A DNA stretch of 64,000 nt from a virus. The position numbers were made by a program, and so were the translations under genes. Location: positions 100,709 to 164,708 of IMG/VR virus record IMGVR_UViG_3300009081_000009, one strand, 5' to 3'. Positions within the stretch are counted from its first letter, which is position 1; the number at the start of each line of letters is the position of its first letter. The notes beneath the pieces are model-generated. The model was not told the DNA's origin, did not search any database, and saw nothing but the letters and a program-made list of their open reading frames with translations. This document shows positions 1,140-33,635 of this stretch, one piece after another.

Positions 1140-1214
1140 TCCCGCTAGTTGGAATTCGAATCCAAATCACCGCATTCACAGTGCGGAGCACTAACCAATT
1201 ATGCTACTACGGGG
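1140..1214 (-). tRNA. tRNA-His(GTG), imperfect acceptor/T arm
   Basis: Anticodon arm ccgca-ctGTGaa-tgcgg; bulged acceptor stem. Confidence 0.6.
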
Positions 1215-1220
1215 ATGATA

Positions 1221-1295
1221 AGATGAAGGGGGGACTCGAACCCAACCAATGGGCAGTTTTGCAGACTGCTGCTTTACCAATTTAGCTACATCATC
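1221..1295 (-). tRNA. tRNA-Cys(GCA)
   Basis: gcagt-ctGCAaa-actgc; GTTCGAGTC T-loop. Confidence 0.85.
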
Positions 1296-1299
1296 ATAG

Positions 1300-1399
1300 T
1301 GACGGAGGTGGGATTCGAACCAAATTCCCAAGGAGCGACCTCGGAATCACATCTTTCTGGATTAACTCCAGTTGCCTCTACCAATTGGGCTACACCGAC
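1300..1399 (-). ncRNA. atypical tRNA-like element (Leu-like D arm, loop agTTAat, very long variable region)
   Basis: D arm gtagcccaattggtagaggc, GTTCGAATCC, two acceptor mismatches, ~35 nt extra arm. Confidence 0.45.
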
Positions 1400-1406
1400 A
1401 TATTTA

Positions 1407-1497
1407 CGGAGATGGAAGGACTCGAACCCTCACGCCAGCATACGCCAGCCACTGTTTTCCAGACAGGATGCGTTACCAGTTACGCATTAACATCTCC
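1407..1497 (-). tRNA. tRNA-Ser(GGA)
   Basis: ctgt-ctGGAaa-acag, long V arm, ggagatg/catctcc acceptor. Confidence 0.85.
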
Positions 1498-1502
1498 ATT
1501 AG

Positions 1503-1586
1503 AAGAGAGTATGGGACTCGAACCCATAAGAGGCTTTCGCCTCGCAAGTTTAGCAAACTTGTGCCTTACCATTAGGCTAACTCTCC
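1503..1586 (-). tRNA. tRNA-Ser(GCT)
   Basis: caagt-ttGCTaa-acttg, V arm gaggc-gaaa-gcctc. Confidence 0.9.
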
Positions 1587-1590
1587 ATAG

Positions 1591-1673
1591 GGTGAAGAAC
1601 GGGACTTGAACCCGCAAACCTTTCGGCACAGGAATCACAATCCTGCATGTTTACCAATTCCATCATCTTCACC
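1591..1673 (-). tRNA. tRNA-His(GTG) with long variable arm
   Basis: cagga-ttGTGat-tcctg; G-1:C73 pair; V arm gcc-gaaa-ggt. Confidence 0.85.
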
Positions 1674-1680
1674 ATGATTA

Positions 1681-1893
1681 TTAATTCGAAATATCAGTAT
1701 TCAACACATCCATGTGATTACTAAAATATTTCTCAATCCATTCATACTTAAATTTCCAATAATTTACTTCACTTTGTAAGGCCGATAATTTGATATTATC
1801 TGTTACAACAATTGGATCATTATCATTAGCATTGGATTTTGACATCTTTCTGCCTTCTTCTCTATATTCAGAACCCGTCTTTATTGGTTCCAT
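1681..1893 (-). CDS. hypothetical protein inside tRNA array
   Basis: 70 aa ORF with ggagg SD, same strand as tRNAs. Confidence 0.6.
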   Translation of the reverse strand: MEPIKTGSEYREEGRKMSKSNANDNDPIVVTDNIKLSALQSEVNYWKFKYEWIEKYFSNHMDVLNTDISN

Positions 1894-1910
1894 TTTTCCT
1901 CCATTGATTA

Positions 1911-1984
1911 AGCTCTCGACAGGATTCGAACCTGCATATGACTGTTTTGCAGACAGTTGCCTTATCCATTTTGGCTACGAGAGC
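1911..1984 (-). tRNA. tRNA-Cys(GCA)
   Basis: actgt-ctGCAaa-acagt; gctctcg/cgagagc acceptor. Confidence 0.9.
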
Positions 1985-1993
1985 ATGTTAAAG

Positions 1994-2143
1994 TTATTTA
2001 TATTGTTTGTCTCTATAATGTTTCCAGTTGCGTTGGTAGTAATCACGGTGTCTATTACACCCACGATTAGCACCGCAACGTTCACATTTGAAACTATATT
2101 GTAAAAGTCTACGATAAACATATGAGTTTGTTGTAGCTTTCAT
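1994..2143 (-). CDS. small basic CxxC protein (MKATTNSYVYRRLLQYSFKCERCGANRGCNRHRDYYQRNWKHYRDKQYK)
   Basis: Manual translation, 49 aa, agga SD; below ORF-track cutoff. Confidence 0.6.
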   Translation of the reverse strand: MKATTNSYVYRRLLQYSFKCERCGANRGCNRHRDYYQRNWKHYRDKQYK

Positions 2144-2241
2144 TTCCTGTTTTTCTATTGTTTTCTTCATGAATTAGATCCTTGTTAAAGTACCTAATTC
2201 TCCATCGATGTATACATCATTAATCCTTGTTAAATTGTTAG

Positions 2242-2324
2242 CAGAAGATGAGGGACTCGAACCCCCAAGCCCTTTCGGACGACTGTTTAGTAGACAGCTA
2301 CCTTACCAATTAGGTTAATCTTCC
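2242..2324 (-). tRNA. tRNA-Ser(ACT)
   Basis: gctgt-ctACTaa-acagt, long V arm, G73. Confidence 0.85.
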
Positions 2325-2442
2325 ATATAAAATTCGTCATCTATAACTTAACTTTATTAGTTAATGATCACTTACCAATAAAGCCTATACATTAATGATC
2401 AGATGACTAATCAAACTTCTCGTTGTATATACTGCACAAAAA

Positions 2443-2514
2443 CAGGCTCACTAGGATTCGAACCCAGAACTTCGGATTTGGAGTCCAACCATGTTACCGT
2501 TACACCATGAGCCT
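2443..2514 (-). tRNA. tRNA-Trp(CCA)
   Basis: ttgga-ctCCAaa-tccga; aggctca/tgagcct acceptor. Confidence 0.85.
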
Positions 2515-2518
2515 ATAA

Positions 2519-2601
2519 AATTAATAGAAGGCTTCGAACCTTCATGCTTTCGCTCCGGGTCGTATACAACCCAGTATGTCTGCCAGTTCCATCATATTAA
2601 T
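2519..2601 (-). ncRNA. atypical tRNA-like element with enlarged anticodon loop (ttGTAtacga, Tyr-like?)
   Basis: attaata/tattaat acceptor, D arm, ctggg/cccgg stem with 10-nt loop, V arm, GTTCGAAGC. Confidence 0.5.
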
Positions 2602-2602
2602 A

Positions 2603-2685
2603 TGCCTATGGGGAGACTTGAACTCCCACGCCATTGCTGGCAACAGCTTCTAAGGCTGCCGTGTCTACCATTCCACCACAGAGGC
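2603..2685 (-). tRNA. tRNA-Leu(TAG)
   Basis: gcagc-ctTAGaa-gctgt, V arm, A73. Confidence 0.9.
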
Positions 2686-2699
2686 TTAATTCTTACTTA

Positions 2700-2783
2700 T
2701 GCCGAGAGAGAGACTTGAACTCTCACGTCCTTACGGACACTGGCTTCTTAGACCAGCGTGTCTACCAGTTCCACCATCACGGC
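2700..2783 (-). tRNA. tRNA-Leu(AAG)
   Basis: ctggt-ctAAGaa-gccag, V arm, A73. Confidence 0.9.
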
Positions 2784-2797
2784 TTATTTAAAGATTA

Positions 2798-2879
2798 CGG
2801 AAGCGGAGGGACTCGAACCCCCAAGCCCTTTCGGGCGGTAGTTTTCAAGACTACTGACTTACCATTAGCCTACGCTTCC
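2798..2879 (-). tRNA. tRNA-Ser(TGA)
   Basis: gtagt-ctTGAaa-actac, V arm, G73. Confidence 0.9.
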
Positions 2880-2884
2880 ATTAG

Positions 2885-2967
2885 TACCAGAAGTGGGACT
2901 TGAACCCACACGAGCTTACACCCAAGGGATTTTAAGTCCCCATCGTCTACCATTCCGACATTCTGGC
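2885..2967 (-). tRNA. tRNA-Leu(TAA)
   Basis: gggga-ctTAAaa-tccct, V arm. Confidence 0.9.
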
Positions 2968-2977
2968 TCACATATAC

Positions 2978-3005
2978 AATATAGAATTTTTCGCGAATTA
3001 GTCAA
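2978..3005 (-). promoter_or_regulatory. possible internal sigma70-type promoter in tRNA operon 1
   Basis: TTGACT-16nt-TATATT just upstream of tRNA-Leu(TAA) at 2967. Confidence 0.5.
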
Positions 3006-3016
3006 TTATTTTTTAG

Positions 3017-3100
3017 TACCGAAGGTGGGATTCGAACCCACACGGGCACGAAGCCCAATGAATTTTAAGTTCACCGTGTCTACCATTCCACCACATCGGC
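3017..3100 (-). tRNA. tRNA-Leu(TAA)
   Basis: gtgaa-ctTAAaa-ttcat, V arm. Confidence 0.9.
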
Positions 3101-3107
3101 ATATTAA

Positions 3108-3190
3108 AGGAGGATAGAGGAATCGAACCCCTAACTTTTACATTACCACTGAGTTCGAATCAGATTGCACACCATTGTGCAGTATCCTCC
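3108..3190 (-). tRNA. tRNA-Ser(CGA)
   Basis: ctga-ttCGAac-tcag; ggaggat/atcctcc acceptor. Confidence 0.8.
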
Positions 3191-3195
3191 ATTAG

Positions 3196-3278
3196 TACCG
3201 AAGGTGGGACTTGAACCCACACGCCCTTTCGGGCAATAGATTTTGAATCTACCGTGTCTACCATTCCACCACATCGGC
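3196..3278 (-). tRNA. tRNA-Leu(CAA)
   Basis: gtaga-ttCAAaa-tctat, V arm. Confidence 0.9.
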
Positions 3279-3337
3279 ATAAAATACAACACCAGATTAA
3301 CAATCAGCGAACATCCGCTAGGGATAATTCTAAATAC

Positions 3338-3368
3338 AAAAAGGGCGAGAACCTTACGATCCTCGCCT
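3338..3368 (-). terminator. attenuator terminator of tRNA operon 1
   Basis: ggcgaggatc-gtaa-ggttctcgcc followed by cttttt. Confidence 0.85.
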
Positions 3369-3391
3369 ATAATGTAAACTTAACTATTAGT

Positions 3392-3466
3392 TTACATATA
3401 TCGAGGATATTCAGGGCTGGAGAGCCATGAACATAAACTTGATAGATGCAAACTGAGAGACTTCAT
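3392..3466 (-). CDS. putative leader peptide MKSLSLHLSSLCSWLSSPEYPRYM
   Basis: aaaggt SD; codons 3-17 all Ser/Leu/His/Cys/Trp, the amino acids of the downstream tRNAs. Confidence 0.85.
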   Translation of the reverse strand: MKSLSLHLSSLCSWLSSPEYPRYM

Positions 3467-3506
3467 TTTATTACCTTTAGTTAAGTAGTTTCGTTTCTTA
3501 CTATAC

Positions 3507-3535
3507 AATATAGATCATTTTCTTGCATTTGTCAA
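3507..3535 (-). promoter_or_regulatory. sigma70-type promoter of tRNA operon 1
   Basis: TTGACA-17nt-TATATT. Confidence 0.8.
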
Positions 3536-5374
3536 TAACTTTTTTATTTCATCCCGTCTTTCTTGTTTAGACAGTTGATTTGGACGTGGTATTTTTGCCT
3601 TATAGTCATTAGATTCTATAAAAACATCATTTTTAGATAGTAATTCATTGTATGGGTTAATAGAAGTCAATTTACCTATGTCAGGTCTGTCATTGATTCT
3701 ATGGGAGTATTTTTCCATTCGATGTCTAAGAAATTCTCTCATAGACATTCTTAATCTATTTTGTTCTAAATATCTAGGTTTGTCATCCAAGTACACTAAT
3801 GATAACTCGCCTTCAACGTAAGAACTTTTAGGAAATCCACCGCATGTTAAGCCACAATGATAAGCAACATCACCTAAATGCAAATCCTCCCATCCATATT
3901 CACCATCGAATAGATTATTAAATAGAGTATTATGATTTATTTTTGTTATTACTTGTACAGCTTCTCGTCTAATTGCAAATCCGCATGTCCATACATGAGA
4001 ATCAGCTAACCCATAATTTGGATTATATGTAAAATCATCTGAAAACCATTTACGTGGTTCAATTTCACCTTTTATTAATGTTATATCATATAGATGTAAA
4101 GCATTATATACAAGTTGTTCATTTATGTTTGATGGTATTCTATCTCCATCTAGAAATAATATATCAGAATATGGATCTGTGTGTTGTGCTCCTAAACTTC
4201 GTGCAGTACCAGCACAGAATCCGATCCCAATATCATTTTTTATATAATGTTCATTTAGGTCAGTTAATACAGATTCGCTATTATCCGTGCATCTATCTAA
4301 TACAAATATTCGTTTAAATGTAGGAAATGATTTCTTTAATGCATTTACCATTATATGTAATGTATTTTCTTGATTTTTGCTTATAATTACTATATTAATT
4401 GGTTTAATATCTGTTGAAGGTCTAATCCTCGATGTCATGAATGGTGCTTGTGGTGCATCTTGTTTTGTTATATGTATTTTAGGTGGCGTATACCACATAT
4501 ATTTATTCAATGGTGTTGTATTATCATCGGTTTGTGATAGTGATCTCGATTCACCTACATGAATGGCATCTGTGAAATTTTTAATGATTGATATTTTATT
4601 ATTTTTATAACAATGCAATATATAACCACGCATCAAATCAAAAAATATAGGATTATTATGAGATTTAAATGCTTTAGCTAATGTCATCACCCAACTTTTA
4701 TATTGAGTATATAAATTTTCATCGTATATTGAAGTAAATAATTCAGAATACATTTCATGTAATTCATCCAATGAATAGTCTTGTAATAATTTGTTTTTGT
4801 ATAAAATATTAGACTTATTTATACCATGAATCAACTCGTTTTTGGTGTAGTTAATATCATCAATATATGATATTCCGTATATATCATTTAGATCGGTAGT
4901 TATATTTAGATTTATACAAAATACACTGATATCTATATCGATTCCATTACTTCTAGTTATATCAGTAATTGCAATATCAGACTTATTAGCATAACATGCA
5001 TCGACTAATGATGTAACAAATGGCTTAGATATGATTACATCTTGTTCTATGTGAATCATGTAATCGTATCCAAGTTCTTTTAATGTTCTGTGTGCCATTG
5101 ATAATGCGGATGCGTGTTCTATATTTGGTTTTATAAATATATTAGTCGCATTTTTTATACTTATCTGATGTAGTAATCTTATATCAGTCATATCTAATAC
5201 ATTTTTTGAACTTCCATCGACATCCCACTTTTCCGAAAATGATGGATATGATATACTGTAAAATAAATCATATGTGTTTTCATGGGCATTAATTGTGTTA
5301 ATCCATGAATCAATCCATGTACCTTTGTTATTTGGTGTTACGTAAAATGGACAGAAAATTGCTACTTTTTTCAT
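3515..5374 (-). CDS. two-domain glycosyltransferase (GT-A/GT2-like)
   Basis: C-terminal VLDRCTDNS, FLDGD (DxD), YGWED motifs; N-terminal HIEQD. Confidence 0.7.
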   Translation of the reverse strand: MKKVAIFCPFYVTPNNKGTWIDSWINTINAHENTYDLFYSISYPSFSEKWDVDGSSKNVLDMTDIRLLHQISIKNATNIFIKPNIEHASALSMAHRTLKELGYDYMIHIEQDVIISKPFVTSLVDACYANKSDIAITDITRSNGIDIDISVFCINLNITTDLNDIYGISYIDDINYTKNELIHGINKSNILYKNKLLQDYSLDELHEMYSELFTSIYDENLYTQYKSWVMTLAKAFKSHNNPIFFDLMRGYILHCYKNNKISIIKNFTDAIHVGESRSLSQTDDNTTPLNKYMWYTPPKIHITKQDAPQAPFMTSRIRPSTDIKPINIVIISKNQENTLHIMVNALKKSFPTFKRIFVLDRCTDNSESVLTDLNEHYIKNDIGIGFCAGTARSLGAQHTDPYSDILFLDGDRIPSNINEQLVYNALHLYDITLIKGEIEPRKWFSDDFTYNPNYGLADSHVWTCGFAIRREAVQVITKINHNTLFNNLFDGEYGWEDLHLGDVAYHCGLTCGGFPKSSYVEGELSLVYLDDKPRYLEQNRLRMSMREFLRHRMEKYSHRINDRPDIGKLTSINPYNELLSKNDVFIESNDYKAKIPRPNQLSKQERRDEIKKLLTNARK

Positions 5375-5381
5375 TATATAC

Positions 5382-6958: not shown

Positions 6959-7052
6959 AAAACCACCTTACTTTTTTATAAATATACAAAAATAATTTGT
7001 GTCAAAGTTAATTTTTGTTGCTATATTTAAATCAAATATCATATGAGATTAT

Positions 7053-7883
7053 ATGCAGAATAAATTCCCAGCAAATAGTAATTCAATTACTCGATTAATG
7101 ATTGGAGACATTGCAAAAACGCAAGTTATTTCATTAGAAGAAGAAATAAAATTATTCAATCAATATCATGCAACTGTCGATTCGGGCATTAAGGATAGAA
7201 TTCGAACGAAAATAATTTCATCGAATTTGAGATTCGTATTAAAAATAGCAATCCATTATAATAAATTAATGGGAGCTGATTTAAATGATCTAATGACAGA
7301 AGGTAAATTAGGATTATATAATGCATTTGCTAAATATAATCATACCCAAGGTATAAAATTTATATCATTTGCTGTCTGGGATATACGGTGTATGATAAGT
7401 AAGTATTTAGAAGAAAACGATTTGGTTCGTGTTCCTGCTCATGTTAAGTTAAAACTAAATAAAGCTAGACGTGAACTGAATCAAGGAAAAGATCCCGAAA
7501 TAGACTTTTACACTGAATTGTTAATGCAACAAAACGGTTCTCCTGTATCATTAGATGCCCATCTTGGATATGGAGATGATGATATGACATTAGCTGATGT
7601 ATTAAAGGATGAGTCCGTTCCTGATCAAGAAACTGAACATTATAAAGATTATATTAATGATGAACTTAGATCAAGTTTAGAATATATATTAACCAATGAA
7701 GAATTAACGGTTATTTCGGCTATGTTTGGTCTTAATAATTGCGAATTTAACATAAAGGAAACCGAACAATTGATCGGTAAGTCTCGTGAGAGAGTTCGTC
7801 AGATTCGCGATAGAGCACTTGCTAAATTAAAGAAACATGGTGATATAAAACAGTTGCATGATTTAATGAGAATAACAAATTAG
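7053..7883 (+). CDS. RNA polymerase sigma-70 family factor
   Basis: SNLRFV, DLMTEGKLGL, KFISFAVWDIR, SRERVRQIRDRALAKL. Confidence 0.9.
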   Translation: MQNKFPANSNSITRLMIGDIAKTQVISLEEEIKLFNQYHATVDSGIKDRIRTKIISSNLRFVLKIAIHYNKLMGADLNDLMTEGKLGLYNAFAKYNHTQGIKFISFAVWDIRCMISKYLEENDLVRVPAHVKLKLNKARRELNQGKDPEIDFYTELLMQQNGSPVSLDAHLGYGDDDMTLADVLKDESVPDQETEHYKDYINDELRSSLEYILTNEELTVISAMFGLNNCEFNIKETEQLIGKSRERVRQIRDRALAKLKKHGDIKQLHDLMRITN

Positions 7884-7884
7884 A

Positions 7885-8673
7885 ATGTTCGGATTTTTGA
7901 AGAAACTACTGGGGGGATCTGTCCCTGATAATTATACTGATACCCAGTACGATCAGAATGTTGTAATTGATACGGATAAAAAGAATAAATTAGATAATGA
8001 GCATTTAGATGAATATTTTTATATTCATAAAGAACCAGACCCAAGTGGAAGGATAAATATGGAAAACGAAAGCAGTACAATAAAAGGTGGTGGTAATATC
8101 GATATTTACGATCATCTTACGGGTAAACCTATTAGTCAAGAATCGATATCAATGGAACAAGTATCCGAAGGTGTTAATATACCCGGAATTGGCTTTGTAG
8201 GTGCTGCAAAATCACCAAAACAGCAGCAACAGCAACCTAACCGTTCTCAGAATCAACAATCTATACCTGTAAATGGAAATAATAATTCGATTCCGGTCAC
8301 TGGGCAATCGAAAAATCCACCAAGTGAAGTTGTGCTTACTTCTGAGGCGTATCATTTATATGTCGATTTAGCTGGTGTTAAGAAAGAATCAGTCAGATTG
8401 ACCTTCTCTGATTCTATCTTAAATATATCAGGTAAACGGTCTAGTATGATAGATGAATGGAAAACGATGTCAAAGGGAAAGGGAAGAAAACATACTATAG
8501 TTGCACAAACATCTACAGTTCCTGCAATTCTACTAGGTGCGTTTGAATTTAAGTATCCATTTAAGAAATCTATAGATGAGACTCTCATCGTAGCTGAATT
8601 CTCGGACGGTTTGTTACACGTAACTCTGCCAGTTCGAGCAAAGGGTGATAGTGTTGCTATTGCGATAATATAA
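7885..8673 (+). CDS. Hsp20/alpha-crystallin domain protein with long N-terminal extension
   Basis: VDLAGVKKESV, LNISGKR, AEFSDGLLHVTLP. Confidence 0.8.
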   Translation: MFGFLKKLLGGSVPDNYTDTQYDQNVVIDTDKKNKLDNEHLDEYFYIHKEPDPSGRINMENESSTIKGGGNIDIYDHLTGKPISQESISMEQVSEGVNIPGIGFVGAAKSPKQQQQQPNRSQNQQSIPVNGNNNSIPVTGQSKNPPSEVVLTSEAYHLYVDLAGVKKESVRLTFSDSILNISGKRSSMIDEWKTMSKGKGRKHTIVAQTSTVPAILLGAFEFKYPFKKSIDETLIVAEFSDGLLHVTLPVRAKGDSVAIAII

Positions 8674-9882: not shown

Positions 9883-11598
9883 TTATCGTTTAAACATTAC
9901 AGCACCTGTCATACCAGAGTCATCATCCTCATCCTCATCATCGGATTGGTTGCGTTTTTTAGTATGATCTAGATATCTAGCGGAATCTTCGAGCGTTTTT
10001 AACTGCTTCTGTTTATTATCCATAGCTTCAAACGCCAATCGTTCCTCGTTGATTTGCTCTTCTGTTTTAAGGATGACATCATCTTCTTCTAATGATTTCA
10101 GATTCACTTCAACTACTTTACCATAATATAATGGAGATTGTAGATAAAATGGAACCCAATAGGCTGCTGTAATATGGTCATCATTATTACCACCCAAACC
10201 ACCCCAACGTTCTTGAGTAACTTTACCAAATGAATGCATCTCATTTATTGTCTGTCTATCTGGTATAGTCATAAACTTTCTTTGTACATATGTTTTAAAT
10301 AGAATACAGGCATTTTGCTTAGTTTTTTCAGATGCCCATAATCCCATATGATGACCCGATGGATCAAAATGCAATATATTTTCATATTCAACTTGATTAT
10401 AGAAGAATTTCATAGCAGCAATTCCGGGGCCGTTTTGTTCAATAATTAATGCAGGGTCATGATATTTTTTTAATATTACATAACATTTTTTACAAAACAA
10501 ATCAATATCCATTTTATTAGATGCAATAACAGCAACCTGATGCACTGTTATATTTGATTTTACTAAGAATATTTGTAAGACAGAATTATCTTGATGCACA
10601 CCATATCCAGAGTCTAATGATTCTACATATTCCCAACCTTCTGCCTCTAACTTTTCTTTTTTCAGTGGTGTTGAATAAATTCGTATGAAATCAGGTAAGT
10701 TAGCAATTTTCATTGGCTTCTTGCTTTCTAATGTTTTTAGGAAGTGATGGTCAATTAACGTAGATACGGAACCCACGAATTCACACATATATTCCTGATT
10801 GAATCTGATTTCACCAATTTTTTTCATTTCATCACGTGCCCATTCAGCAGTTCTACCCGGAACTGCATTCCATGGTATTTCACTGCGAATATAACCATTG
10901 GTGTCTTCTGCACTTATAGTACCAACATCTGATATATTACAAGCATCTTCCCACATTCTAAAGAAATGATTCATACCACATGGTGTTGATGTTATAATAA
11001 CTTTGGTTGTTTTACCTGATGAAATGGTAGGGAACACAGAAGCAATAAACTCATCTGCTATATGTGATTTAACGAATGCAAATTCGTCAAGATATAACAA
11101 GTTAATAGACATACCTCGAATACCATCAGGGGATGTAGCAGCACAAACGATTCGAGTTCCGTGTGAAAATTGTATGCCTCGTTTATTCCACTGTTTAACT
11201 CCCGGTTGCATCCAATATGGAAGGTTAATATATGAATCTCTTAACTGCTGTAATTGTTCCTGTGCTAGATTAAGTTTGTTTGCTAATATAGCTACTACTT
11301 TATCTTCATTAAATAATGCATACCACAATATAAATGCACGTGTAGTGGCTGATTTTCCTGCCTGACGTGGATATTTAACTATATTAAAACGGTTTTTATG
11401 AAATTCACCAATTAAATCTTCTTGGAAATTCCACATTTTAAATAATTGCATACCTTTATCTTTAGTATTGATATACACATAGTTTTTTATGAAATATATA
11501 GGATCTCTTGCACATTTAGCAAGTTCCTTAAACATCCAAGGCTCCATCTGAACCGATTCATTACCATCTCTTAAATTATTAATTCCATTAAATGCCAT
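9883..11598 (-). CDS. terminase large subunit (T4 gp17-like)
   Basis: PRQAGKS Walker A, LLYLDEFAFV Walker B, TSTP, FNQEY, nuclease DSGYG/IEQN/NDD. Confidence 0.95.
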   Translation of the reverse strand: MAFNGINNLRDGNESVQMEPWMFKELAKCARDPIYFIKNYVYINTKDKGMQLFKMWNFQEDLIGEFHKNRFNIVKYPRQAGKSATTRAFILWYALFNEDKVVAILANKLNLAQEQLQQLRDSYINLPYWMQPGVKQWNKRGIQFSHGTRIVCAATSPDGIRGMSINLLYLDEFAFVKSHIADEFIASVFPTISSGKTTKVIITSTPCGMNHFFRMWEDACNISDVGTISAEDTNGYIRSEIPWNAVPGRTAEWARDEMKKIGEIRFNQEYMCEFVGSVSTLIDHHFLKTLESKKPMKIANLPDFIRIYSTPLKKEKLEAEGWEYVESLDSGYGVHQDNSVLQIFLVKSNITVHQVAVIASNKMDIDLFCKKCYVILKKYHDPALIIEQNGPGIAAMKFFYNQVEYENILHFDPSGHHMGLWASEKTKQNACILFKTYVQRKFMTIPDRQTINEMHSFGKVTQERWGGLGGNNDDHITAAYWVPFYLQSPLYYGKVVEVNLKSLEEDDVILKTEEQINEERLAFEAMDNKQKQLKTLEDSARYLDHTKKRNQSDDEDEDDDSGMTGAVMFKR

Positions 11599-13247: not shown

Positions 13248-13380
13248 TTTTTAAAAAAACCTGTGATGTATATTGACATTTGTTTATAAGATTCCTATAT
13301 TAAACATGAGAATATCTCAAAAACACGCAATGAACGATGATTTTTGGGTAATATTTGAGGTTTTTTAGGAGAAATGCAGA

Positions 13381-14608
13381 TATGACTAAAATTGACTGGG
13401 CAAAATTTACCGATCCGATGGTTGTATCTGGTGTTCGTTTGATGCAGCGTATTATGGAATTGTCATATGAGGCATATATCGTAGGCGGTGCGGTTCGTGA
13501 TATTGCAATGGGTGATACTGATGTTCATGATATTGATATTGCTACAAACATGCCAATTGATGAAATCAAGAAGTATTTTAAGACTGTTGAATATGGTGGC
13601 GGTGAAAAACACGGTACTGTAATTGTTCATTTTGAAAAGTTTGATTATGAATTGACTCAATTCAGAACAGAATCTGGGTACAGTGATAAGCGCAGACCCG
13701 ATCATGTTGAATTTGTTAAATCATTTGAAGAGGACACTAAACGAAGAGATTTTACCATTAACTCAATGGGAATTGATGCGTCTGGTGCATTTATTGATTA
13801 TCATGGTGGTATGCTGGATATTCAGCGTGGTGTATTAAGAACTGTAGGTGATCCTCATGAACGGTTCAGTGAAGATGCTTTGAGAATTTTACGTGCAATT
13901 AGATTTGCTGCTAGGTTTGGATTTGTCATTGATACTCATACATTATATGCGATCAAAGAATTGGCCTATACAGTGCCTACTACTTCAATTGAGCGCATTA
14001 GAGATGAGTTATTTAAGACTATTGCTTATGGCGGTGTTAAATTCGCATGTGCATTGGAATTATTGCAGATTACTGGATTATGGAGAATCATTATTCCAGA
14101 ATTAGCATTAACTTCTCACAAAATTGAAGCAATTCGTCGTGCTGATACAGATAAACCAGAAGTTAATTTTGCTATCTTGATGAGTGGTATGGATTATCAA
14201 GGTGTGAGTGATTTGTGCATGAGACTGACGTTTACTATTAAGGAAATGAAAACAGTTGCATTTATCGTAACTAAACTACGATCATATGAGGAATTGGATG
14301 AAATTCCTAAAGTGGATGCGTTAGCGATTGTGCTTCATGGTGATTTTATGTTGCTTAGAAGTGTATTTATTTCACTTTATGAAAAAGATTTGGATAATTG
14401 TGCTGACATTATCCAAAAAATTTCTAAATTCAAAGAAGTAACAGATCGACAGAAAGTTGTGAACCAAATCATTCAGAGTGCTGGTTTCAGTGGTGCTCGA
14501 TTTGGAATGGCTGTTAGTGAAGTTAGTAAATGGTTATTTTCTGAATTCGAGAAAGATTATAGACCTACTGATAGTGAAATTGAACAATTTGTAAAAGGAT
14601 TAGTGTAA
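13381..14608 (+). CDS. cca: CCA-adding tRNA nucleotidyltransferase
   Basis: VGGAVRD, DIDIAT, RRDFTINS, EDALRILRAIRF; start approximate (ATG after aggag SD); most tRNA genes here lack encoded CCA. Confidence 0.88.
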
Positions 14609-14609
14609 T

Positions 14610-15686
14610 ATGGTGAATTATAAAGAAGATAAAGATTTATTTGATGCGTTAGTTCCTAATGCATCGGCTCCTATCAAAATTGATATTTTTGACTTTGATG
14701 GTACTATTTTTAATTCACCTGTTCCTAACCGTAAGTTATGGGATAGTAAAACTTATGGACGCTTGATGGAAGATTCTTCTCGTGGTGGATTAGGATGGTT
14801 CCAACATAATGTTACACTATCAAATAAGTATATTCAGGGATCTGATTTCAATTATGATGTCGTAAATGAAGTTAGAAAATCTATGGCTGATCCTTCTGCT
14901 GTAACTGTTATGTTGACTGGTAGAGATACCACGTTTACTTCGCATGTGTTGGAAATCTTGGCTAGAGAATCATTGGTGTTTGATGAGTATGGATTTAAGC
15001 CAGCTCCAAAAGCAGGTGAGATTCGTACTACTACAATGAACTTCAAGCAGGATTTTATTAATGGATTGATTTCTAAGTATGGTGTGCGTAAAGTATCTAT
15101 GTGGGAAGATAGACCAAAGCATGTCACGAAATTCAATGAGTTTCTGACTGCGATTGGTGTGAATAATGGCGTTCATTATATTGAAAAGCCAGAAGTTCAC
15201 ATGGAACCAGCTCTCGAACAAGAGTTGGTTCGTCATCTGATTGCATCGGCACCAAGTTATGCACCTCATCCACGAACAGAAAGTGTTGAACGTAAGAGAA
15301 AGCCATTATTTTGTGGAGTTTTCTTGTATAACGATTCGCATGATTTGTTAGTGGATGAGTTAGGAACTTATATTCCACATGACTGGAAAATTTTTGCGCA
15401 TCATATGACTATATGTTTAGGTATGAGTAAAAATCCAACAACCGAACAGTATATTAATGATCACATCGGAATGGAAAGTAATATGACTGCTGTTGCCATT
15501 GGGATATCTTCTGATGCCATTGCAGTGAAAGTTGAGAGTGATGTACCAACTGATAATAAAGTTGCTCATGTGACTATTGCTACGCCTCCAAATGGCAAGC
15601 CATATAACAGCAATAAAATTACGGAATGGAAGCCACTTGATACGCCAATAAAACTTTCTGGTCTAATTGACGCATTTTATCCGTAA
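14610..15686 (+). CDS. HAD phosphatase fused to 2H (2',3'-cyclic) phosphoesterase, RNA end-healing-like
   Basis: DFDGT, LTGR, WEDR (HAD); HHMT and AHVT (two HxT motifs). Confidence 0.75.
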   Translation: MVNYKEDKDLFDALVPNASAPIKIDIFDFDGTIFNSPVPNRKLWDSKTYGRLMEDSSRGGLGWFQHNVTLSNKYIQGSDFNYDVVNEVRKSMADPSAVTVMLTGRDTTFTSHVLEILARESLVFDEYGFKPAPKAGEIRTTTMNFKQDFINGLISKYGVRKVSMWEDRPKHVTKFNEFLTAIGVNNGVHYIEKPEVHMEPALEQELVRHLIASAPSYAPHPRTESVERKRKPLFCGVFLYNDSHDLLVDELGTYIPHDWKIFAHHMTICLGMSKNPTTEQYINDHIGMESNMTAVAIGISSDAIAVKVESDVPTDNKVAHVTIATPPNGKPYNSNKITEWKPLDTPIKLSGLIDAFYP

Positions 15687-17419: not shown

Positions 17420-17684
17420 TCATAAAATTGTTACTACAGTTCTTAGATGGACAACATTAACTATTTTTGCTGTTGCGTTGGGATTTAAGTTATATAATAT
17501 ATATAAATACGGTGGAACTAAAGCATCCTCACCTGTAAATCCAAACGAAGAAGAACCAACCCCAGACTATCCAGAAAGCGTTCGGGATTATGATTATACA
17601 CAGCCAGCACCTCCAGTAACTGGATATGGTGAGGCTGATGGTGATTGGAATGAAAATAACGCCAGTGCTTCTTATGATAGATAA
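17409..17684 (+). CDS. membrane-anchored hypothetical protein
   Basis: Hydrophobic N-terminal helix, acidic/Pro-rich tail. Confidence 0.6.
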   Translation: MKINHKIVTTVLRWTTLTIFAVALGFKLYNIYKYGGTKASSPVNPNEEEPTPDYPESVRDYDYTQPAPPVTGYGEADGDWNENNASASYDR

Positions 17685-17711
17685 GTTAACAATATACTCT
17701 AGGAATTATAC

Positions 17712-26886: not shown

Positions 26887-27033
26887 TCAAATGGAAAATA
26901 TTGATAAAAATTCGGTTGGTGTAAATGTCACAATGGATAATAATACAAAACACGTGGCCTTTGGGTTTTATGTAGTTGTTGTTTTTATTGCATTCGTGAG
27001 ATTGATTACTTCATTTAAATCAAAGGGAATTAA

Positions 27034-27537
27034 ATGACTAAATTAGAACGTGCTATGTTGGTAGCTGAAAAAGTTCATATGAATCAATCGTATGATATTT
27101 TTCCTTACATCTATCATATCAAACAGGTTGTAAAGGTTGCTCAGCATTTTGGATTTGATTCATCTATTCAAGAAGCCTGTGCATTACATGATTCAATGGA
27201 AGATGGCAATTTATCATACAATGATATTAAGAAATATTTTGGTGAAGAAGTTGCTGAATTGGTATATGCAGTTACTGATGAATTGGGTAGAAATAGAAAG
27301 GAACGCAAAGCCAAAACATATCCTAAGATCAGAGCTAATTGGAAAGCGGTAGCGGTTAAACTATGTGATCGAATTGCTAATATGCAACATTCAAGTGAAT
27401 ACACACCTGATATGATGAATATGTATAAAAAAGAACATGATGGATTTAAAACTGCTATATATAATCCAGATCATCCCGAAACTGAATTGAAAAAGTTATG
27501 GGAACACATCGAAGTAATTTTGAATTCAATAAAATAA
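27034..27537 (+). CDS. HD-domain (p)ppGpp hydrolase-like protein (SpoT/Mesh1 small alarmone hydrolase family)
   Basis: PYIYH, ALHDSMED, FGEEVAELVYAVTD, VKLCDRIAN. Confidence 0.8.
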   Translation: MTKLERAMLVAEKVHMNQSYDIFPYIYHIKQVVKVAQHFGFDSSIQEACALHDSMEDGNLSYNDIKKYFGEEVAELVYAVTDELGRNRKERKAKTYPKIRANWKAVAVKLCDRIANMQHSSEYTPDMMNMYKKEHDGFKTAIYNPDHPETELKKLWEHIEVILNSIK

Positions 27538-27547
27538 AGAGCATGTA

Positions 27548-30471: not shown

Positions 30472-30498
30472 GAAAAATTAGAAAAGATGAAAAAAGTT

Positions 30499-30527
30499 TT
30501 GACAAATGGTGAAAAATAACCTATATT
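30499..30527 (+). promoter_or_regulatory. sigma70-type promoter of largest tRNA operon
   Basis: TTGACA-17nt-TATATT. Confidence 0.8.
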
Positions 30528-30568
30528 GTATTTATAAGAGAAACGAAACACTTTAAAAAGGATTAGTC

Positions 30569-30655
30569 ATGCAAGTCACAACCATTACCACAGCCGATAC
30601 AGCAGCGATCATTGATCGCGGTACAATCGCAATGGGTACAGGAGTACATGCATAG
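30569..30655 (+). CDS. putative leader peptide MQVTTITTADTAAIIDRGTIAMGTGVHA
   Basis: aagga SD; 26 of 28 residues are T/A/I/G/V/D/M/R, the downstream tRNA set. Confidence 0.88.
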   Translation: MQVTTITTADTAAIIDRGTIAMGTGVHA

Positions 30656-30680
30656 CGGGGTCGTCTTATAATAGAGACAC

Positions 30681-30714
30681 AAACCCCGCAGGAAACTGTG
30701 GGGTTTTTCTTTTT
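30681..30714 (+). terminator. attenuator terminator (Ala/Gly/Met/Thr/Ile/Arg/Val/Asp group)
   Basis: aaaccccgcag-gaaa-ctgtggggttt-ttcttttt. Confidence 0.9.
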
Positions 30715-30765
30715 GTATAGCAAATGGAGTCGTAGTCCCTGTTGGTAGCCCAACAACTACAATAT

Positions 30766-30839
30766 GGAAGTGTAGCTCGAATTGGTAGAGCAGATCCTTT
30801 GCAAGGATACGGTTAAGGGTTCGACTCCCTTCACTTCCA
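30766..30839 (+). tRNA. tRNA-Ala(TGC)
   Basis: atcc-ttTGCaa-ggat. Confidence 0.85.
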
Positions 30840-30894
30840 CTAACATAACGCTTGCCGTTGTGTGATGATTGATAATTTGGTGTGAATTTTTCAT

Positions 30895-30965
30895 GCGATT
30901 ATGTTGTAATGGTAGCAAATAACTTTGCCGAAGTTAAAGTCCGAGTTCGAGCCTCGGTAGTCGCT
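30895..30965 (+). tRNA. tRNA-Gly(GCC)
   Basis: taact-ttGCCga-agtta; U73. Confidence 0.8.
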
Positions 30966-31035
30966 TGTACTATTAGGAAAGACTAATCGTGTAAAGCTAC
31001 TCCGTCAGCCACGTTAAACATATCGAAGGAGCCAA

Positions 31036-31108
31036 GGGGATATAGCTCAGTTGGTAGAGCACTTGATTTGCACTCAAGAGGTCTGGGGTTCGAACCTCCA
31101 TGTCTCCA
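31036..31108 (+). tRNA. tRNA-Ala(TGC)
   Basis: cttga-ttTGCac-tcaag; G3:U70. Confidence 0.9.
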
Positions 31109-31109
31109 T

Positions 31110-31183
31110 AGCGGGGTAATAGCAGTTGGTAGCTTGTCAGGCTCATAACCTGAAGGTCGTGGGTTCGAGTCCCACCCCCGCAA
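31110..31183 (+). tRNA. tRNA-Met(CAT), initiator-like
   Basis: tcagg-ctCATaa-cctga; unpaired 1:72. Confidence 0.85.
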
Positions 31184-31343
31184 TACACTCCAAAAGCAGA
31201 TTGTCACTGCCTTTGAGCACGTAGCTCAATGCACAACAAGTAACAAGCGTTACTTGATAATAACAACGACAGAAACGGACTTGCGGTTGCAACCGCGAAG
31301 GCAGAAAAGTCCTGTGATGATGTTTCTTTTAGTCATCAATTAT

Positions 31344-31414
31344 GCATCTATCGTATAAAGGTAATACCAGTGATTTCCAATCATTAGCTCTCGGTTCGAT
31401 TCCGGGTAGATGCT
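31344..31414 (+). tRNA. tRNA-Gly(TCC)
   Basis: agtga-ttTCCaa-tcatt. Confidence 0.85.
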
Positions 31415-31586
31415 TAACATGTTTTGTTCATTTTAATGTTTACAAACTATCTTGAAAATATGTTTGCTAAAAATGAAACCGCCATCGGAACTGAGGATGG
31501 GTAGGACGGATGATCCACATCGAGTAATAGTTAAGCAAGCCTATTGTGTTTCTATGAGGGAATGTGTGTATCAGTTTCATTTTTAT

Positions 31587-31660
31587 GCGAAAGTAACTCA
31601 ATGGTTTAGAGTCCCTGTTTTCCAAACAGATTGTTGTGGGTTCAAGTCCCATCTTTCGCT
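31587..31660 (+). tRNA. tRNA-Gly(TCC)
   Basis: ctgt-ttTCCaa-acag. Confidence 0.85.
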
Positions 31661-31663
31661 TAT

Positions 31664-31736
31664 GCTGGTGTAGCTCAATAGGTAGAGCACTTGATTTGTA
31701 TTCAAGACGTTGTGGGTTCGATTCCTATCACCAGCT
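31664..31736 (+). tRNA. tRNA-Thr(TGT)
   Basis: cttga-ttTGTat-tcaag. Confidence 0.9.
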
Positions 31737-31793
31737 CTCGGTTCGGTTGTATGTTTGCTGTCCACTTCCACAGACGTAACATTCACTTTTTAT

Positions 31794-31866
31794 GCTAGTG
31801 TAGCTCAATAGGTAGAGCACTTGATTTGTAATCAAGCGGTTGGGGGTTCGATTCCCTTCACTAGCT
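31794..31866 (+). tRNA. tRNA-Thr(TGT)
   Basis: cttga-ttTGTaa-tcaag. Confidence 0.9.
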
Positions 31867-31870
31867 TTAT

Positions 31871-31945
31871 AGGCACGTAGCTCAATTTGGTTAGAGCGTC
31901 ACTCTGATACGGTGAATGTTAGTGGTTCAAGTCCACTCGTGCCTA
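31871..31945 (+). tRNA. tRNA-Ile(GAT)
   Basis: tcact-ctGATac-ggtga. Confidence 0.9.
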
Positions 31946-32050
31946 CTAATGTATAACCAGAGGCACAGGTTTAACTCCTGTTTACGGCATATGACTAGAG
32001 ATCAGAACCGTTGTATATTAACGTAAGATTACTGGCTCTATACATTTTTT

Positions 32051-32124
32051 GCCTGTGTAGCTCAACTGGATGTAGCACTATACTACGAATATAGAGGATG
32101 TGTGTTCGAATCACATCACAGGTA
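32051..32124 (+). tRNA. tRNA-Arg(ACG)
   Basis: ctata-ctACGaa-tatag. Confidence 0.85.
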
Positions 32125-32126
32125 CT

Positions 32127-32245
32127 CGCAGAATGAAGGAACAATAGCTGACACAATACTAAGGCTATCAACTAAACTTACCCCGCTATTAATGGGGATA
32201 TCCGAGGCATCGGTGTTGTAGGTGAAAGTCCTACTTCTGCAACCA
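32127..32245 (+). ncRNA. oversized tRNA-like RNA (119 nt) with encoded ACCA end
   Basis: cgcagaa/ttctgca-acca acceptor, gtagg-tgaaagt-cctac T-like arm, three internal hairpins. Confidence 0.55.
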
Positions 32246-32253
32246 ATTAATAT

Positions 32254-32327
32254 GCCTGTTTAGCTCAACTGGATAGAGCACACGGCTTCGAACCGTGAGG
32301 TTGAGGGTTCGAATCCCTCGATAGGCA
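32254..32327 (+). tRNA. tRNA-Arg(TCG)
   Basis: cacgg-ctTCGaa-ccgtg. Confidence 0.9.
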
Positions 32328-32344
32328 CTAGACAATAAACTCGA

Positions 32345-32417
32345 TGCGGGGTAGAGAAGTGGTTAACTCGCTTGGCTCATAACCAAGAGATCGACTGTTC
32401 AAATCAGTCCTCCGCTA
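32345..32417 (+). tRNA. tRNA-Met(CAT), initiator-like
   Basis: cttgg-ctCATaa-ccaag; unpaired 1:72. Confidence 0.85.
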
Positions 32418-32437
32418 CTAATTTAAAGGAATGTGTT

Positions 32438-32737
32438 ATGCGTAAAACTAAAAAAGGATTTAATATTGTTGCTGTAACACCCGAAGGTGTTGACGTAGTT
32501 GATGGTGTGTTTAGAGTTTTTGATAGTCTAGGAATGCCATTGGATGAAATTTTTAATCAATGCAAGCAGCGAAACTTAATGCCTTCATGGACGCATTTCT
32601 ATGATGATGCTAGAATACAAGGATGGAGTCATGAAACTATTATGAATAGATTAGAGACAACCATTCCTGATATATATGGTAAAGAATTTTCGGATGCTGT
32701 CATGTATAGATTACAAATTTATTCCGAATTGTGTTAA
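32438..32737 (+). CDS. hypothetical protein with AlaRS-like motif
   Basis: aagga SD; GVFRVFDSLGMPLD resembles AlaRS AFKLYDTYGFPLD. Confidence 0.6.
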   Translation: MRKTKKGFNIVAVTPEGVDVVDGVFRVFDSLGMPLDEIFNQCKQRNLMPSWTHFYDDARIQGWSHETIMNRLETTIPDIYGKEFSDAVMYRLQIYSELC

Positions 32738-32742
32738 AATTC

Positions 32743-32817
32743 GGGCGATTAGCTCAGTTGGTTTAGAGCAACTCCCTTACAAGGAGAAGGTCGTAGGTTC
32801 AACTCCTACATCGCCCA
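32743..32817 (+). tRNA. tRNA-Val(TAC)
   Basis: ctcc-ctTACaa-ggag. Confidence 0.9.
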
Positions 32818-32826
32818 TACAAATAT

Positions 32827-32900
32827 GCTGTAATAGCTCAGTTGGTAGAGCACTTCATTGGTATTGAAGAGGTCATCGGGTTCGAATCCCATTTACAGCT
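32827..32900 (+). tRNA. tRNA-Thr(GGT)
   Basis: cttca-ttGGTat-tgaag. Confidence 0.85.
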
Positions 32901-32919
32901 TAACTTAACAAGGATTTAT

Positions 32920-33099
32920 ATGGGAATTATTATAAAGATATTTATTATAATAGCTGGTATTACAATTGTACTTGGTATTTATAATAAAGTACGTGAGTCA
33001 AGGGAAAATAAAAAAATTATGGATGATGTTAAGAGACAAGTTGAAAAGAATAGACGACCTTCATCGGATTATACATTTCCTGATGAAAAGAGATTTTGA
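32920..33099 (+). CDS. small membrane protein
   Basis: aagga SD, hydrophobic N-terminus. Confidence 0.6.
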   Translation: MGIIIKIFIIIAGITIVLGIYNKVRESRENKKIMDDVKRQVEKNRRPSSDYTFPDEKRF

Positions 33100-33104
33100 T
33101 TTAT

Positions 33105-33191
33105 AGATGGATACTCGAATTGGTCTTCAGAGGGCAGTCTGATAAGCTGTTTGGTGCAAGCCTTATGTGGGTTCAAGTCCCACTCCATCTA
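33105..33191 (+). tRNA. tRNA-Ile(GAT) with long variable arm
   Basis: gcagt-ctGATaa-gctgt; V arm ggt-gcaa-gcc. Confidence 0.8.
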
Positions 33192-33197
33192 CTATAA

Positions 33198-33270
33198 GGA
33201 CACGTTTCCCAGTGGTTAAGGAGCCTGACTGTCTATCAGGATTTCGTGGGTTCGAATCCCATCGTGTTCG
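33198..33270 (+). tRNA. tRNA-Asp(GTC)
   Basis: cctga-ctGTCta-tcagg; G73. Confidence 0.85.
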
Positions 33271-33279
33271 TATTATTAA

Positions 33280-33353
33280 GGAGCCGTAACTCAATGGTTT
33301 AGAGTGCTACACTGTCTATGTAGATGTTGTGGGTTCGAGTCCCATCGGTTTCG
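33280..33353 (+). tRNA. tRNA-Asp(GTC)
   Basis: ctaca-ctGTCta-tgtag; G73. Confidence 0.9.
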
Positions 33354-33358
33354 TTTTT

Positions 33359-33433
33359 GCCGGATTAGCTCAGTTGGCTTAGAGCAGATGCTTCATACGC
33401 ATAAGGTCACTGGTTCAAGTCCAGTATCCGGTA
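33359..33433 (+). tRNA. tRNA(CAT), elongator Met or Ile2
   Basis: atgc-ttCATac-gcat. Confidence 0.85.
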
Positions 33434-33561
33434 TAAGTTTGAGAAGGGTTATTCTGCGTTCAACAGAGAAAACCTAAAGTTTTGACGGACTTACTTAGAG
33501 GACGATCTGAATCAAATACTAGTCACCATTCAGTGAGTCACTCTAGCTTCTCAATTCATTT

Positions 33562-33635
33562 GCCCAGATAGCACAACTGGTGGTGCGCTCGTTTCGTAAG
33601 CGAGAGGTTGATGGGTTCGAGTCCCTCTTTGGGCT
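33562..33635 (+). tRNA. tRNA-Thr(CGT)
   Basis: ctcgt-ttCGTaa-gcgag. Confidence 0.85.

Follow-up and report, generated by a model that had tools for sequence, protein, structure and literature searches.

Why would a phage place a short open reading frame (ORF), often rich in the amino acids of the genes behind it, in front of each block of its transfer RNA (tRNA) genes? The question is raised by the final 64 kb (AT-rich, ~34% G+C; hereafter the window) of the 164,708-bp virus record IMGVR_UViG_3300009081_000009, which derives from an uncultured, T4-like phage with a large terminase ~36% identical to that of its nearest cultured phages, the cyanomyophages. No close relative of the genome at the DNA level was found in the cultured-phage collection. 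The short ORFs and the elements around them are interpreted here, with a probability of roughly 0.7, as ribosome-mediated transcription attenuators before tRNA operons, in which slow decoding of the leader would permit read-through and so provide negative feedback. This reading is built on the anatomy of the units, the statistical specificity of their parts, and their conservation and covariation among related phages, all of which are directly observed.

Leader units and the tRNA blocks behind them

Within the window, 46 tRNA genes were identified with ARAGORN at 1140-33635 (57 genome-wide, for all 20 amino acids), 43 of which were confirmed in an Rfam scan of the whole window that returned no other RNA family at gathering thresholds. 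The genes are sorted by amino acid into five blocks, in agreement with an earlier note on this DNA, made from the letters alone, that had counted about 45 genes in the same groups. All five of the short ORFs which that note had seen in front of the blocks are present, the four U-tailed terminators it had described behind leaders are among the top-ranked terminator-like sites in scans, and the complementarity of 6-8 nucleotides (nt) between the leader end and the terminator 5' arm occurs in all four units for which it had been claimed, each time with the unit's own arm. The parts of the five window units, lettered B to F, are:

Unit B
3507-3535, minus strand: promoter, TTGACA-17-TATATT
3392-3466, minus strand: leader ORF B, 24 codons, 15/23 residues Ser/Leu/His/Cys/Trp, with an AAAGG Shine-Dalgarno site 7 nt upstream
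3401-3409, minus strand: putative antiterminator strand, includes AUCCUCG, 7-15 nt ahead of the stop, with its partner CGAGGAU in the terminator 5' arm
3334-3367 (scan site 3344-3367), minus strand: terminator, 10-bp stem, GUAA loop, U tail, -17.0 kcal/mol
1140-3278, minus strand: tRNA block B, 16 genes (Leu x5, Ser x6, His x2, Cys x2, Trp, odd class II tRNA)

Pro unit (C)
20028-20056, plus strand: promoter, TTGACA-17-TATATT
20064-20150, plus strand: candidate leader ORF C, 28 codons, two Pro codons three codons ahead of the stop; a weak member of the set
20184-20334, plus strand: tRNA-Pro x2

Asn/Arg unit (D)
23033-23061, plus strand: promoter of the Asn/Arg (and Glu) operon, TTGACA-17-TATATT
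23086-23160, plus strand: leader ORF D, 24 codons, Asn x5 (AAT) and Arg x2
23142-23152, plus strand: putative antiterminator strand, ACCGAG core, partner CUCGGU in the terminator 5' arm (33/2000 shuffles)
23186-23223 (scan site 23186-23213), plus strand: terminator, 12-bp stem, GAAA loop, U-rich tail, -19.4 kcal/mol
23234-23563, plus strand: tRNA-Asn x3 and tRNA-Arg(TCT)

Glu unit (E)
23590-23640, plus strand: leader ORF E, 16 codons, Glu x4 in an EREEER run, with an AAGGAA Shine-Dalgarno site 7 nt upstream
23638-23645, plus strand: putative antiterminator strand UGAACAUG, spans the stop codon and pairs with CAUGUUCA at 23677-23684
23673-23707 (scan site 23673-23698), plus strand: terminator, -16.3 kcal/mol
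23708-24363, plus strand: tRNA-Glu x5 (TTC x4, CTC x1)
24030-24281, plus strand: 83-codon ORF preceding the last tRNA-Glu of the block

Large operon (F)
30499-30527, plus strand: promoter, TTGACA-17-TATATT
30569-30655, plus strand: leader ORF F, 28 codons, 25/27 residues Ala/Gly/Met/Thr/Ile/Arg/Val/Asp, with an AAGGA Shine-Dalgarno site 6 nt upstream
30654-30667, plus strand: putative antiterminator strand, GCGGGGU core, begins within the stop codon, partner ACCCCGC in the terminator 5' arm
30681-30716 (scan site 30681-30706), plus strand: terminator, 11-bp stem, GAAA loop, U tail
30766-33635, plus strand: 19 tRNA genes (Ala, Gly, Met, Thr, Ile, Arg, Val, Asp), with small protein genes in between

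The four window terminators consist of GC-rich stems of 10-12 bp, a tetraloop and a U tract (-16 to -21 kcal/mol). The Arg codons of leader D include AGA, which is read by the TCT tRNA that is the sole Arg tRNA of its block. As leader E has no promoter of its own and lies directly behind tRNA-Arg, the Asn/Arg and Glu units appear to stand in series on one transcript.

Outside the window, the prediction that any Lys, Gln, Phe and Tyr tRNAs would have leaders rich in those residues was borne out in the remaining 100 kb of the record, where four more units occur on the minus strand, 82 kb before the window start (genome coordinates):

17424-19172, minus strand: the four further units
Tyr/Met unit, minus strand: promoter, leader with 3 Tyr and 3 Met codons (start included), terminator, tRNAs Tyr-Met-Tyr
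Phe unit, minus strand: leader with 3 Phe codons, then tRNA-Phe x2
Lys unit, minus strand: leader with 4 Lys and 4 Gln codons, terminator, tRNA-Lys x3
Gln unit, minus strand: own promoter, leader with six consecutive Gln codons, terminator, tRNA-Gln x3

Together the nine leaders span all 20 amino acids and 57 tRNAs. A 29-codon ORF with a CxxC...CxxC pattern sits between the Gln terminator and the tRNA-Gln genes.

There are 17 perfect TTGACA-17-TATATT sites, of the sigma-70 type, genome-wide, six of which head tRNA leaders, such that 6/9 leaders lie 7-100 nt past a perfect promoter and the other 3/9 lie directly behind a previous tRNA. For the other 11 promoters of this class, no such short leader was seen in the upstream regions read, and several lead directly into a Shine-Dalgarno site and a gene. 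Among the leaders that have a 5' untranslated region, 6/7 possess a Shine-Dalgarno 4-mer at 5-10 nt, compared to 5.3% of all ATGs in the genome. The remaining two, Gln and Pro, begin 6-7 nt past the -10 box (7-9 nt in their counterparts on G001, a related contig described below), the geometry of leaderless mRNAs; leader C starts 7 nt past its box and its mRNA is therefore probably leaderless. The eight-codon core of leader B (SLHLSSLC) has four variable sites among four phages, all of them synonymous third-position changes, while outside this core the control residues are retained and their order and the other residues drift, as in the Asn and Tyr leaders of G001. These signals suggest that the leaders are translated.

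The match between leader and block was scored as the binomial enrichment of the block's amino acids over the phage's own amino-acid usage, for every leader against every block. The true pairing of the nine leaders was the single best of 362,880 permutations, and the own block scored best for 8/9 leaders. When the choice of ORF was made blind, by taking the maximum over all upstream ATG/GTG/TTG ORFs of each block so as to remove picking bias, the true pairing was still within the best 10 permutations (joint permutation p = 3e-6 for the chosen ORFs to 3e-5 for the blind choice). Individually, the enrichment was strongest in leader F (25/27 residues, p = 3e-7; equalled in 0/1000 random regions) and leader B (15/23 residues, p = 1.5e-6), followed by leader D (Asn/Arg, 7/23 residues, p = 7e-3) and leader E (Glu, 4/15 residues, p = 1e-2). 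The claim that leaders are rich in the amino acids of their blocks was thus upheld for four of the five window leaders and failed for that of the Pro unit (p = 0.25). Taking each block alone, random regions equalled the observed enrichment in 5-13% of cases for B, Tyr/Met and Phe, and in 40% for Pro.

Two further ORFs in the large operon were considered as leaders. An Arg-rich ORF before a tRNA-Arg (31949-32026) was rejected as an additional mini-leader, being attributed to chance and not conserved in the related contig L021. An Ile-rich ORF before tRNA-Ile (32920-33099, plus strand) was rejected as well, as it encodes a conserved 59-residue single-pass membrane protein. This membrane protein of the large tRNA operon is also encoded in L021, at 10461-10655.

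Leader ends, terminators and related phages

An intrinsic terminator with a U tract was located between the leader and the first tRNA in 7/9 units (-15.8 to -20.8 kcal/mol), and is missing from the Pro and Phe units. Pairing with the terminator 5' arm was tested for a segment made up of the final 27 nt of each leader and 12 nt past its stop. In the seven units of this genome, the duplex with the own arm was better than that of shuffled leader ends, with per-unit p values from <0.0005 to 0.13, which combine by Fisher's method, calculated by hand, to ~1e-6. A cross-pairing test was based on 18 leader/terminator pairs from the genome and its relatives, in which the own pairs totalled -228.6 kcal/mol compared to -147.4 +/- 12.2 kcal/mol for permuted pairs (0/100,000 permutations as good) and the own terminator arm ranked first or second of 18 in 14 cases. 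The pairing strand always falls within -22 to +14 of the stop codon, past the control codons and under the footprint that a ribosome terminating there would have; in 12/13 units the best-pairing strand is downstream of the control codons and reachable by a ribosome at the stop. The Glu unit has a second segment, containing its control codons, that can also pair with the terminator 5' arm.

The relatives form a small IMG/VR clade of ~six distinct phages with marker proteins 58-76% identical to those of the window. The clade is considered small because motif scans gave no further tRNA-linked contigs: in IMG/VR, the Glu-leader and B-leader motifs returned only already known contigs, and in metagenomes the Glu-leader motif had at least 120 matches, with no tRNA adjoining any among the matches listed. 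Across this clade, leaders are conserved whereas the surrounding spacers diverge. A Leu/Ser/His/Trp/Cys block stands behind a conserved B leader in L002/L003/L004, L008 and L009, with a terminator of different sequence. The set recurs on G001, a contig of 131 kb, with Asn, Glu, Tyr, Phe, Lys, Gln and Pro leaders; the G001 counterpart of leader D has the same composition with the residue order changed, and the Phe leader peptide is conserved there. The Glu leader is conserved in both L021 and G001, and L021 also has the leader of the big operon. What the Pro unit of L002 shares with that of the window is confined to two adjacent Pro residues close to the C-terminus and the leaderless geometry; in L002 a CCC codon accompanies a tRNA-Pro(GGG).

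The pairing itself changes in concert. In the big operon of L021, the leader end and the terminator arm have both changed relative to the window (UGCGAGGUU with AGCCUCGCA). For the Glu unit, compared over three genomes, 8/8 antiterminator pairs are formed in each, two with compensatory changes, and 97% of the terminator cells are paired, with five compensatory pairs. Two columns of this unit covary with both of their partners. Slid controls pair at 21-55%.

That leader composition should track tRNA content among related phages was also confirmed. The big operon of L022 additionally includes Asn, Glu and Pro tRNAs and the gene for a transfer-messenger RNA (tmRNA), and its 38-codon leader, with 34/38 residues in the set of the operon, holds matching residues: Asn, Pro and Glu make up 10/37 residues after the start, compared to 0/57 in two leaders of operons without these tRNAs (Fisher p = 4e-5). 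The end of the L022 leader is a perfect 13-nt complement of the terminator arm. The tmRNA gene (L022 16412-16764) lies inside the tRNA operon, behind this multivalent leader. Elsewhere in the clade, a lone tRNA-Lys(TTT) of one relative (L033; G002 66658-66732) has a promoter and neither leader nor terminator, so that not every tRNA gene of the clade is gated.

The proposed switch and its alternatives

The anatomy of a leader-peptide attenuator, to which the earlier note had likened the units, is found in most of them: promoter, start signals, control codons, terminator and a maskable antiterminator. In the proposed mechanism, a host-type promoter, or read-through from an upstream tRNA block, would drive transcription of a leader of 16-28 codons, which would be translated while RNA polymerase proceeds. 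The antiterminator strand would be formed by the final 5-20 nt of the leader, located at or shortly ahead of the stop and complementary to the 5' arm of a terminator 15-35 nt downstream. If decoding is quick, the ribosome at the stop would mask this strand, the terminator hairpin would form and transcription would end before the tRNA genes. If decoding is slow, with the charged tRNA scarce, the ribosome would wait on the upstream control codons, leaving the strand free to pair with the 5' arm, and the tRNAs would be transcribed. As the leader is written in the amino acids of its own tRNAs, the product would speed leader translation and shut its own operon, and each of the nine tRNA sets, which jointly cover all 20 amino acids, would be under its own negative feedback. 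Stalling probably controls termination, as far as can be judged from sequence, and the natural trigger would be the loss or shortage of host tRNAs during infection through nucleases, takeover or starvation.

To explore the direction of the switch, a mask of 29 nt representing the ribosome was placed on the nascent RNA, which was folded as far as the loop of the terminator. In 9/13 units, the 5' arm was sequestered with the ribosome on the control codons and freed with the ribosome at the last codons. In the other four units, the arm was sequestered throughout. Nascent RNA without a ribosome forms the antiterminator, so the predicted default state is ON. Some within-leader pairing occurs in minimum-energy folds, and no conserved 1:2 (anti-antiterminator) helix was identified. 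Full-transcript equilibrium folding cannot decide the direction of the switch, and the nascent-transcript version alone is informative.

Several results weigh against this interpretation. The enrichment of the Pro leader is only 2/27 residues and not significant, and the Pro unit has only a 4-bp hairpin (20134-20145) and no convincing terminator. The Phe unit lacks a terminator altogether, its leader running into tRNA-Phe, and the proposed switch does not account for this leader. No Shine-Dalgarno site lies ahead of the first ATG of leader D. Synonymous codon choice fits the anticodons of the blocks no better than resampling (P = 0.06-0.9); the leader design is visible at the amino-acid level only. 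Single duplexes are modest for B, E and Gln (p = 0.07-0.13), and the four units with the arm sequestered at every ribosome position are three B-type units and the big-operon unit of L021. The minimum-energy fold of the full-length transcript always prefers the terminator, which is nearly always kept under the ribosome mask as well; since equilibrium favors the terminator, the switch would have to be kinetic. Finally, attenuators of this kind respond to charged tRNA, such that amino-acid starvation would open them too, when extra tRNA is useless.

This last point leads to the alternative that survives best, though still an unlikely one: the switch depends on translation but reads the general state of translation, the stage of infection or the amino-acid supply rather than each tRNA class, and the matched composition merely closes the loop via the phage tRNAs. 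The units would then be shut as long as host translation holds up, and open once it collapses or amino acids become exhausted. With a predicted ribosome-free default of ON, any strong slowing of translation would open all units, and it is established for trp and his that lack of a tRNA and lack of an amino acid look alike to an attenuator; an HD_4 domain protein (of the HD family of RelA/SpoT enzymes) and RNA-repair genes also lie among the tRNA operons. A general sensor, however, would not call for nine leaders whose division of the 20 amino acids mirrors exactly that of the tRNA genes, nor for a leader composition that follows tRNA content between phages.

Less probable is a role of leader translation in the processing or stability of tRNA precursors (through access of RNase E or RNase P) or in access of Rho, with the hairpins acting as processing or stability elements. 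Such a role would accommodate the Phe leader, which lacks a terminator and runs into its tRNA and yet is conserved in G001, the Pro unit without a real terminator, and the Glu, Phe and Lys leaders, located inside tRNA precursors that need cutting. It does not account for the canonical terminators of seven units (10-12 bp GC-rich stems, tetraloops, U tracts), nor for the antitermination signature seen in the specific, covarying complementarity of leader end and terminator 5' arm.

It is more doubtful still that the short ORFs are untranslated or non-functional. On that view, the terminators would be constitutive and leaky, serving to dampen strong promoters, and the amino-acid match would have arisen by chance or from composition. 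AT-rich DNA does contain many short ORFs, and the enrichment of single blocks is often reached by random regions, as given above (5-13% for B, Tyr/Met and Phe; 40% for Pro), but the joint permutation p values (3e-6 to 3e-5) and the leaders found for Lys, Gln, Phe and Tyr as predicted argue against chance, as do the Shine-Dalgarno sites, a B core with synonymous changes only and leaders that are kept while spacers diverge. The reversed logic, under which a stalled ribosome would bring about termination and a fast one read-through, in a feed-forward loop that makes tRNAs only while translation runs well, is the least credible of all: the second pairing segment of the Glu unit, with its control codons, would indeed be masked by a stalled ribosome, but the best strand lies downstream of the control codons in 12/13 units, the stop-spanning Glu strand is the fully paired and compensated one in all three genomes, ribosome-mask folding gives the canonical direction, and halting tRNA synthesis during a tRNA shortage has no evident use.

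Several other genes of interest lie in the vicinity. Between the tRNA operons (13355-15686, plus strand), the gene for a CCA-adding enzyme (PolyA_pol head domain) comes first and that for a protein with a 'Swiss Army Knife' RNA-repair HAD domain second, possibly forming a tRNA repair module. The HD_4 protein (27034-27537, plus strand) is a possible alarmone hydrolase. These CCA-adding, RNA-repair HAD and HD_4 genes fit loosely with tRNA loss as the trigger. Other genes in the window include a protein with WGR, PARP regulatory and PARP catalytic domains, unusual for a phage, that has its own promoter right after the Glu tRNAs (24443-25798, plus strand), a sigma-70-like factor (regions 2 and 4; 7053-7883, plus strand) and an Hsp20-domain protein (7885-8673, plus strand).

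Some of the tRNAs are unusual in structure. The tRNAs of His, Asn, Ile, Gln and Glu are 83-88 nt in length, a trait kept in relatives (L021, L002), which suggests that they have long variable arms; such arms are normally confined to Leu, Ser and Tyr tRNAs. Examples are:

1590-1672, window: tRNA-His
23317-23401, window: tRNA-Asn
33105-33192, window: tRNA-Ile
17503-17585, genome: tRNA-Gln

An 83-nt class II tRNA-like gene (2519-2601, minus strand), to which ARAGORN assigns an 8-nt anticodon loop (tata), was not among the Rfam tRNAs at the gathering score and may be a Tyr-like or frameshift-type tRNA. Anticodons with A34 occur in the window in Ser-ACT (2241-2324) and Leu-AAG (2700-2783).

Known attenuators, cultured phages and tRNA supply

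The closest parallels are the enterobacterial leaders of thr (Thr/Ile), ilvGMEDA (Ile/Leu/Val), trpL, hisL, pheL and leuL, which share with the phage units a promoter, a leader rich in control codons, a terminator and an antiterminator masked by the ribosome; the thr and ilv leaders and those of the phage are also alike in that one leader can sense several amino acids. The differences are of four kinds. Enterobacterial leaders regulate biosynthetic enzymes, whereas the phage units would regulate tRNA genes, so that the sensed molecule is the product. The phage leaders sample up to 8-11 amino acids, unlike the leaders of enterobacterial amino-acid operons. With no clear 1:2 helix in the phage units, the predicted untranslated state is read-through and not the super-attenuation of trp. 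Unlike enterobacterial leaders, the phage units are nested serially within tRNA precursors, and two are apparently leaderless. No match to the Rfam Thr, Leu, Trp or His leader families was found in the whole window at gathering thresholds; the phage elements would work like enterobacterial leaders but are not homologous members of those families.

Attenuation of a component of the translation apparatus has a precedent in pheST of Escherichia coli, with its Phe-rich leader, where the signal is likewise charged cognate tRNA. While pheST controls one synthetase for one amino acid in one operon, the phage set comprises nine units that would control the tRNAs themselves. T-box riboswitches of Gram-positive bacteria similarly stand ahead of translation-related genes and let the state of a specific tRNA decide between terminator and antiterminator, but a T-box binds uncharged tRNA via a specifier codon without a ribosome or an ORF, whereas the phage elements have Shine-Dalgarno sites, starts and frames under purifying selection. 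No T-box was found in the window by an Rfam covariance scan at gathering thresholds. In mycobacteria, as outlined in a preprint (bioRxiv 10.1101/834739), leaderless short polycysteine ORFs act as Cys-responsive attenuators. As far as that outline goes, these resemble the Gln and Pro units in being very short, having a leaderless 5' end, being rich in a single amino acid and controlling downstream genes; they differ in that they control Cys-related protein genes, while the Gln and Pro units precede tRNAs.

A pipeline that recovers the leaders of the window was used to explore the spread of the design among other phages. It returned no matched leader and terminator in Erwinia phage FBB1, T5, KVP40 or Agrobacterium phage Atu_ph07, and the leader design, as read from these sequences, is not universal among tRNA-rich phages. 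In T5, a 42-codon ORF with five Cys (gene T5.070; L035 12628-12756) lies directly upstream of tRNA-Cys and probably encodes a zinc-ribbon protein; as a Cys leader it was taken to be a coincidence because there is no terminator.

Two unverified leads come from other cultured phages. In the Caulobacter phages CcrColossus (L045 2565-2684) and CcrPW (L046 1711-1830), a 39-codon ORF precedes ten tRNAs (Pro, Lys, Leu, His, Ala, Ser), and 29/38 of its residues after the start belong to the set of the block, a count reached by 0/902 six-frame windows. The leader and the two hairpins that follow are almost identical between the two phages (87% identity over the whole 421-nt region), and there is no clear U tract after the hairpin. 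This ORF is a candidate attenuator in a cultured, tractable system. In Xanthomonas phage XacN1 (L041 929-970), a 13-codon ORF with 3 Lys and 4 Tyr codons lies between a tRNA and a Lys-Lys-Tyr run and is followed by a hairpin without a U tract, making it a candidate for the same design.

A full-text literature search found no description of leader-peptide attenuation of tRNA genes, and no earlier case is known to us in which such attenuation, rather than acting on an enzyme pathway, would control the very molecule that it senses, a form of direct tRNA homeostasis. The units would thus represent a known mechanism in a new application. The broadest reading is tentative, and the balance tips slightly against it: the phage may possess a closed-loop tRNA supply, in which nine attenuators divide the 20 amino acids among themselves, make good the loss of individual classes of host tRNA after cleavage by anticodon nucleases or degradation during takeover, and stop once supply is restored, a general and so far undescribed principle that would possibly extend to the cultured Caulobacter phages.

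For annotators, the units provide a rule for spotting unannotated regulatory mini-genes in phage genomes, and as synthetic-biology parts they would offer compact, orthogonal, tRNA-specific sensors; the CcrColossus/CcrPW and XacN1 leads would supply laboratory systems for the idea. Why phages carry tRNA genes is a long-standing question; among the answers proposed are that the tRNAs compensate for codon usage, restore a host pool in decay or evade defences that cleave tRNA. A sensor for each set of tRNA genes would show that the phage measures the decoding speed of the very codons those tRNAs read.

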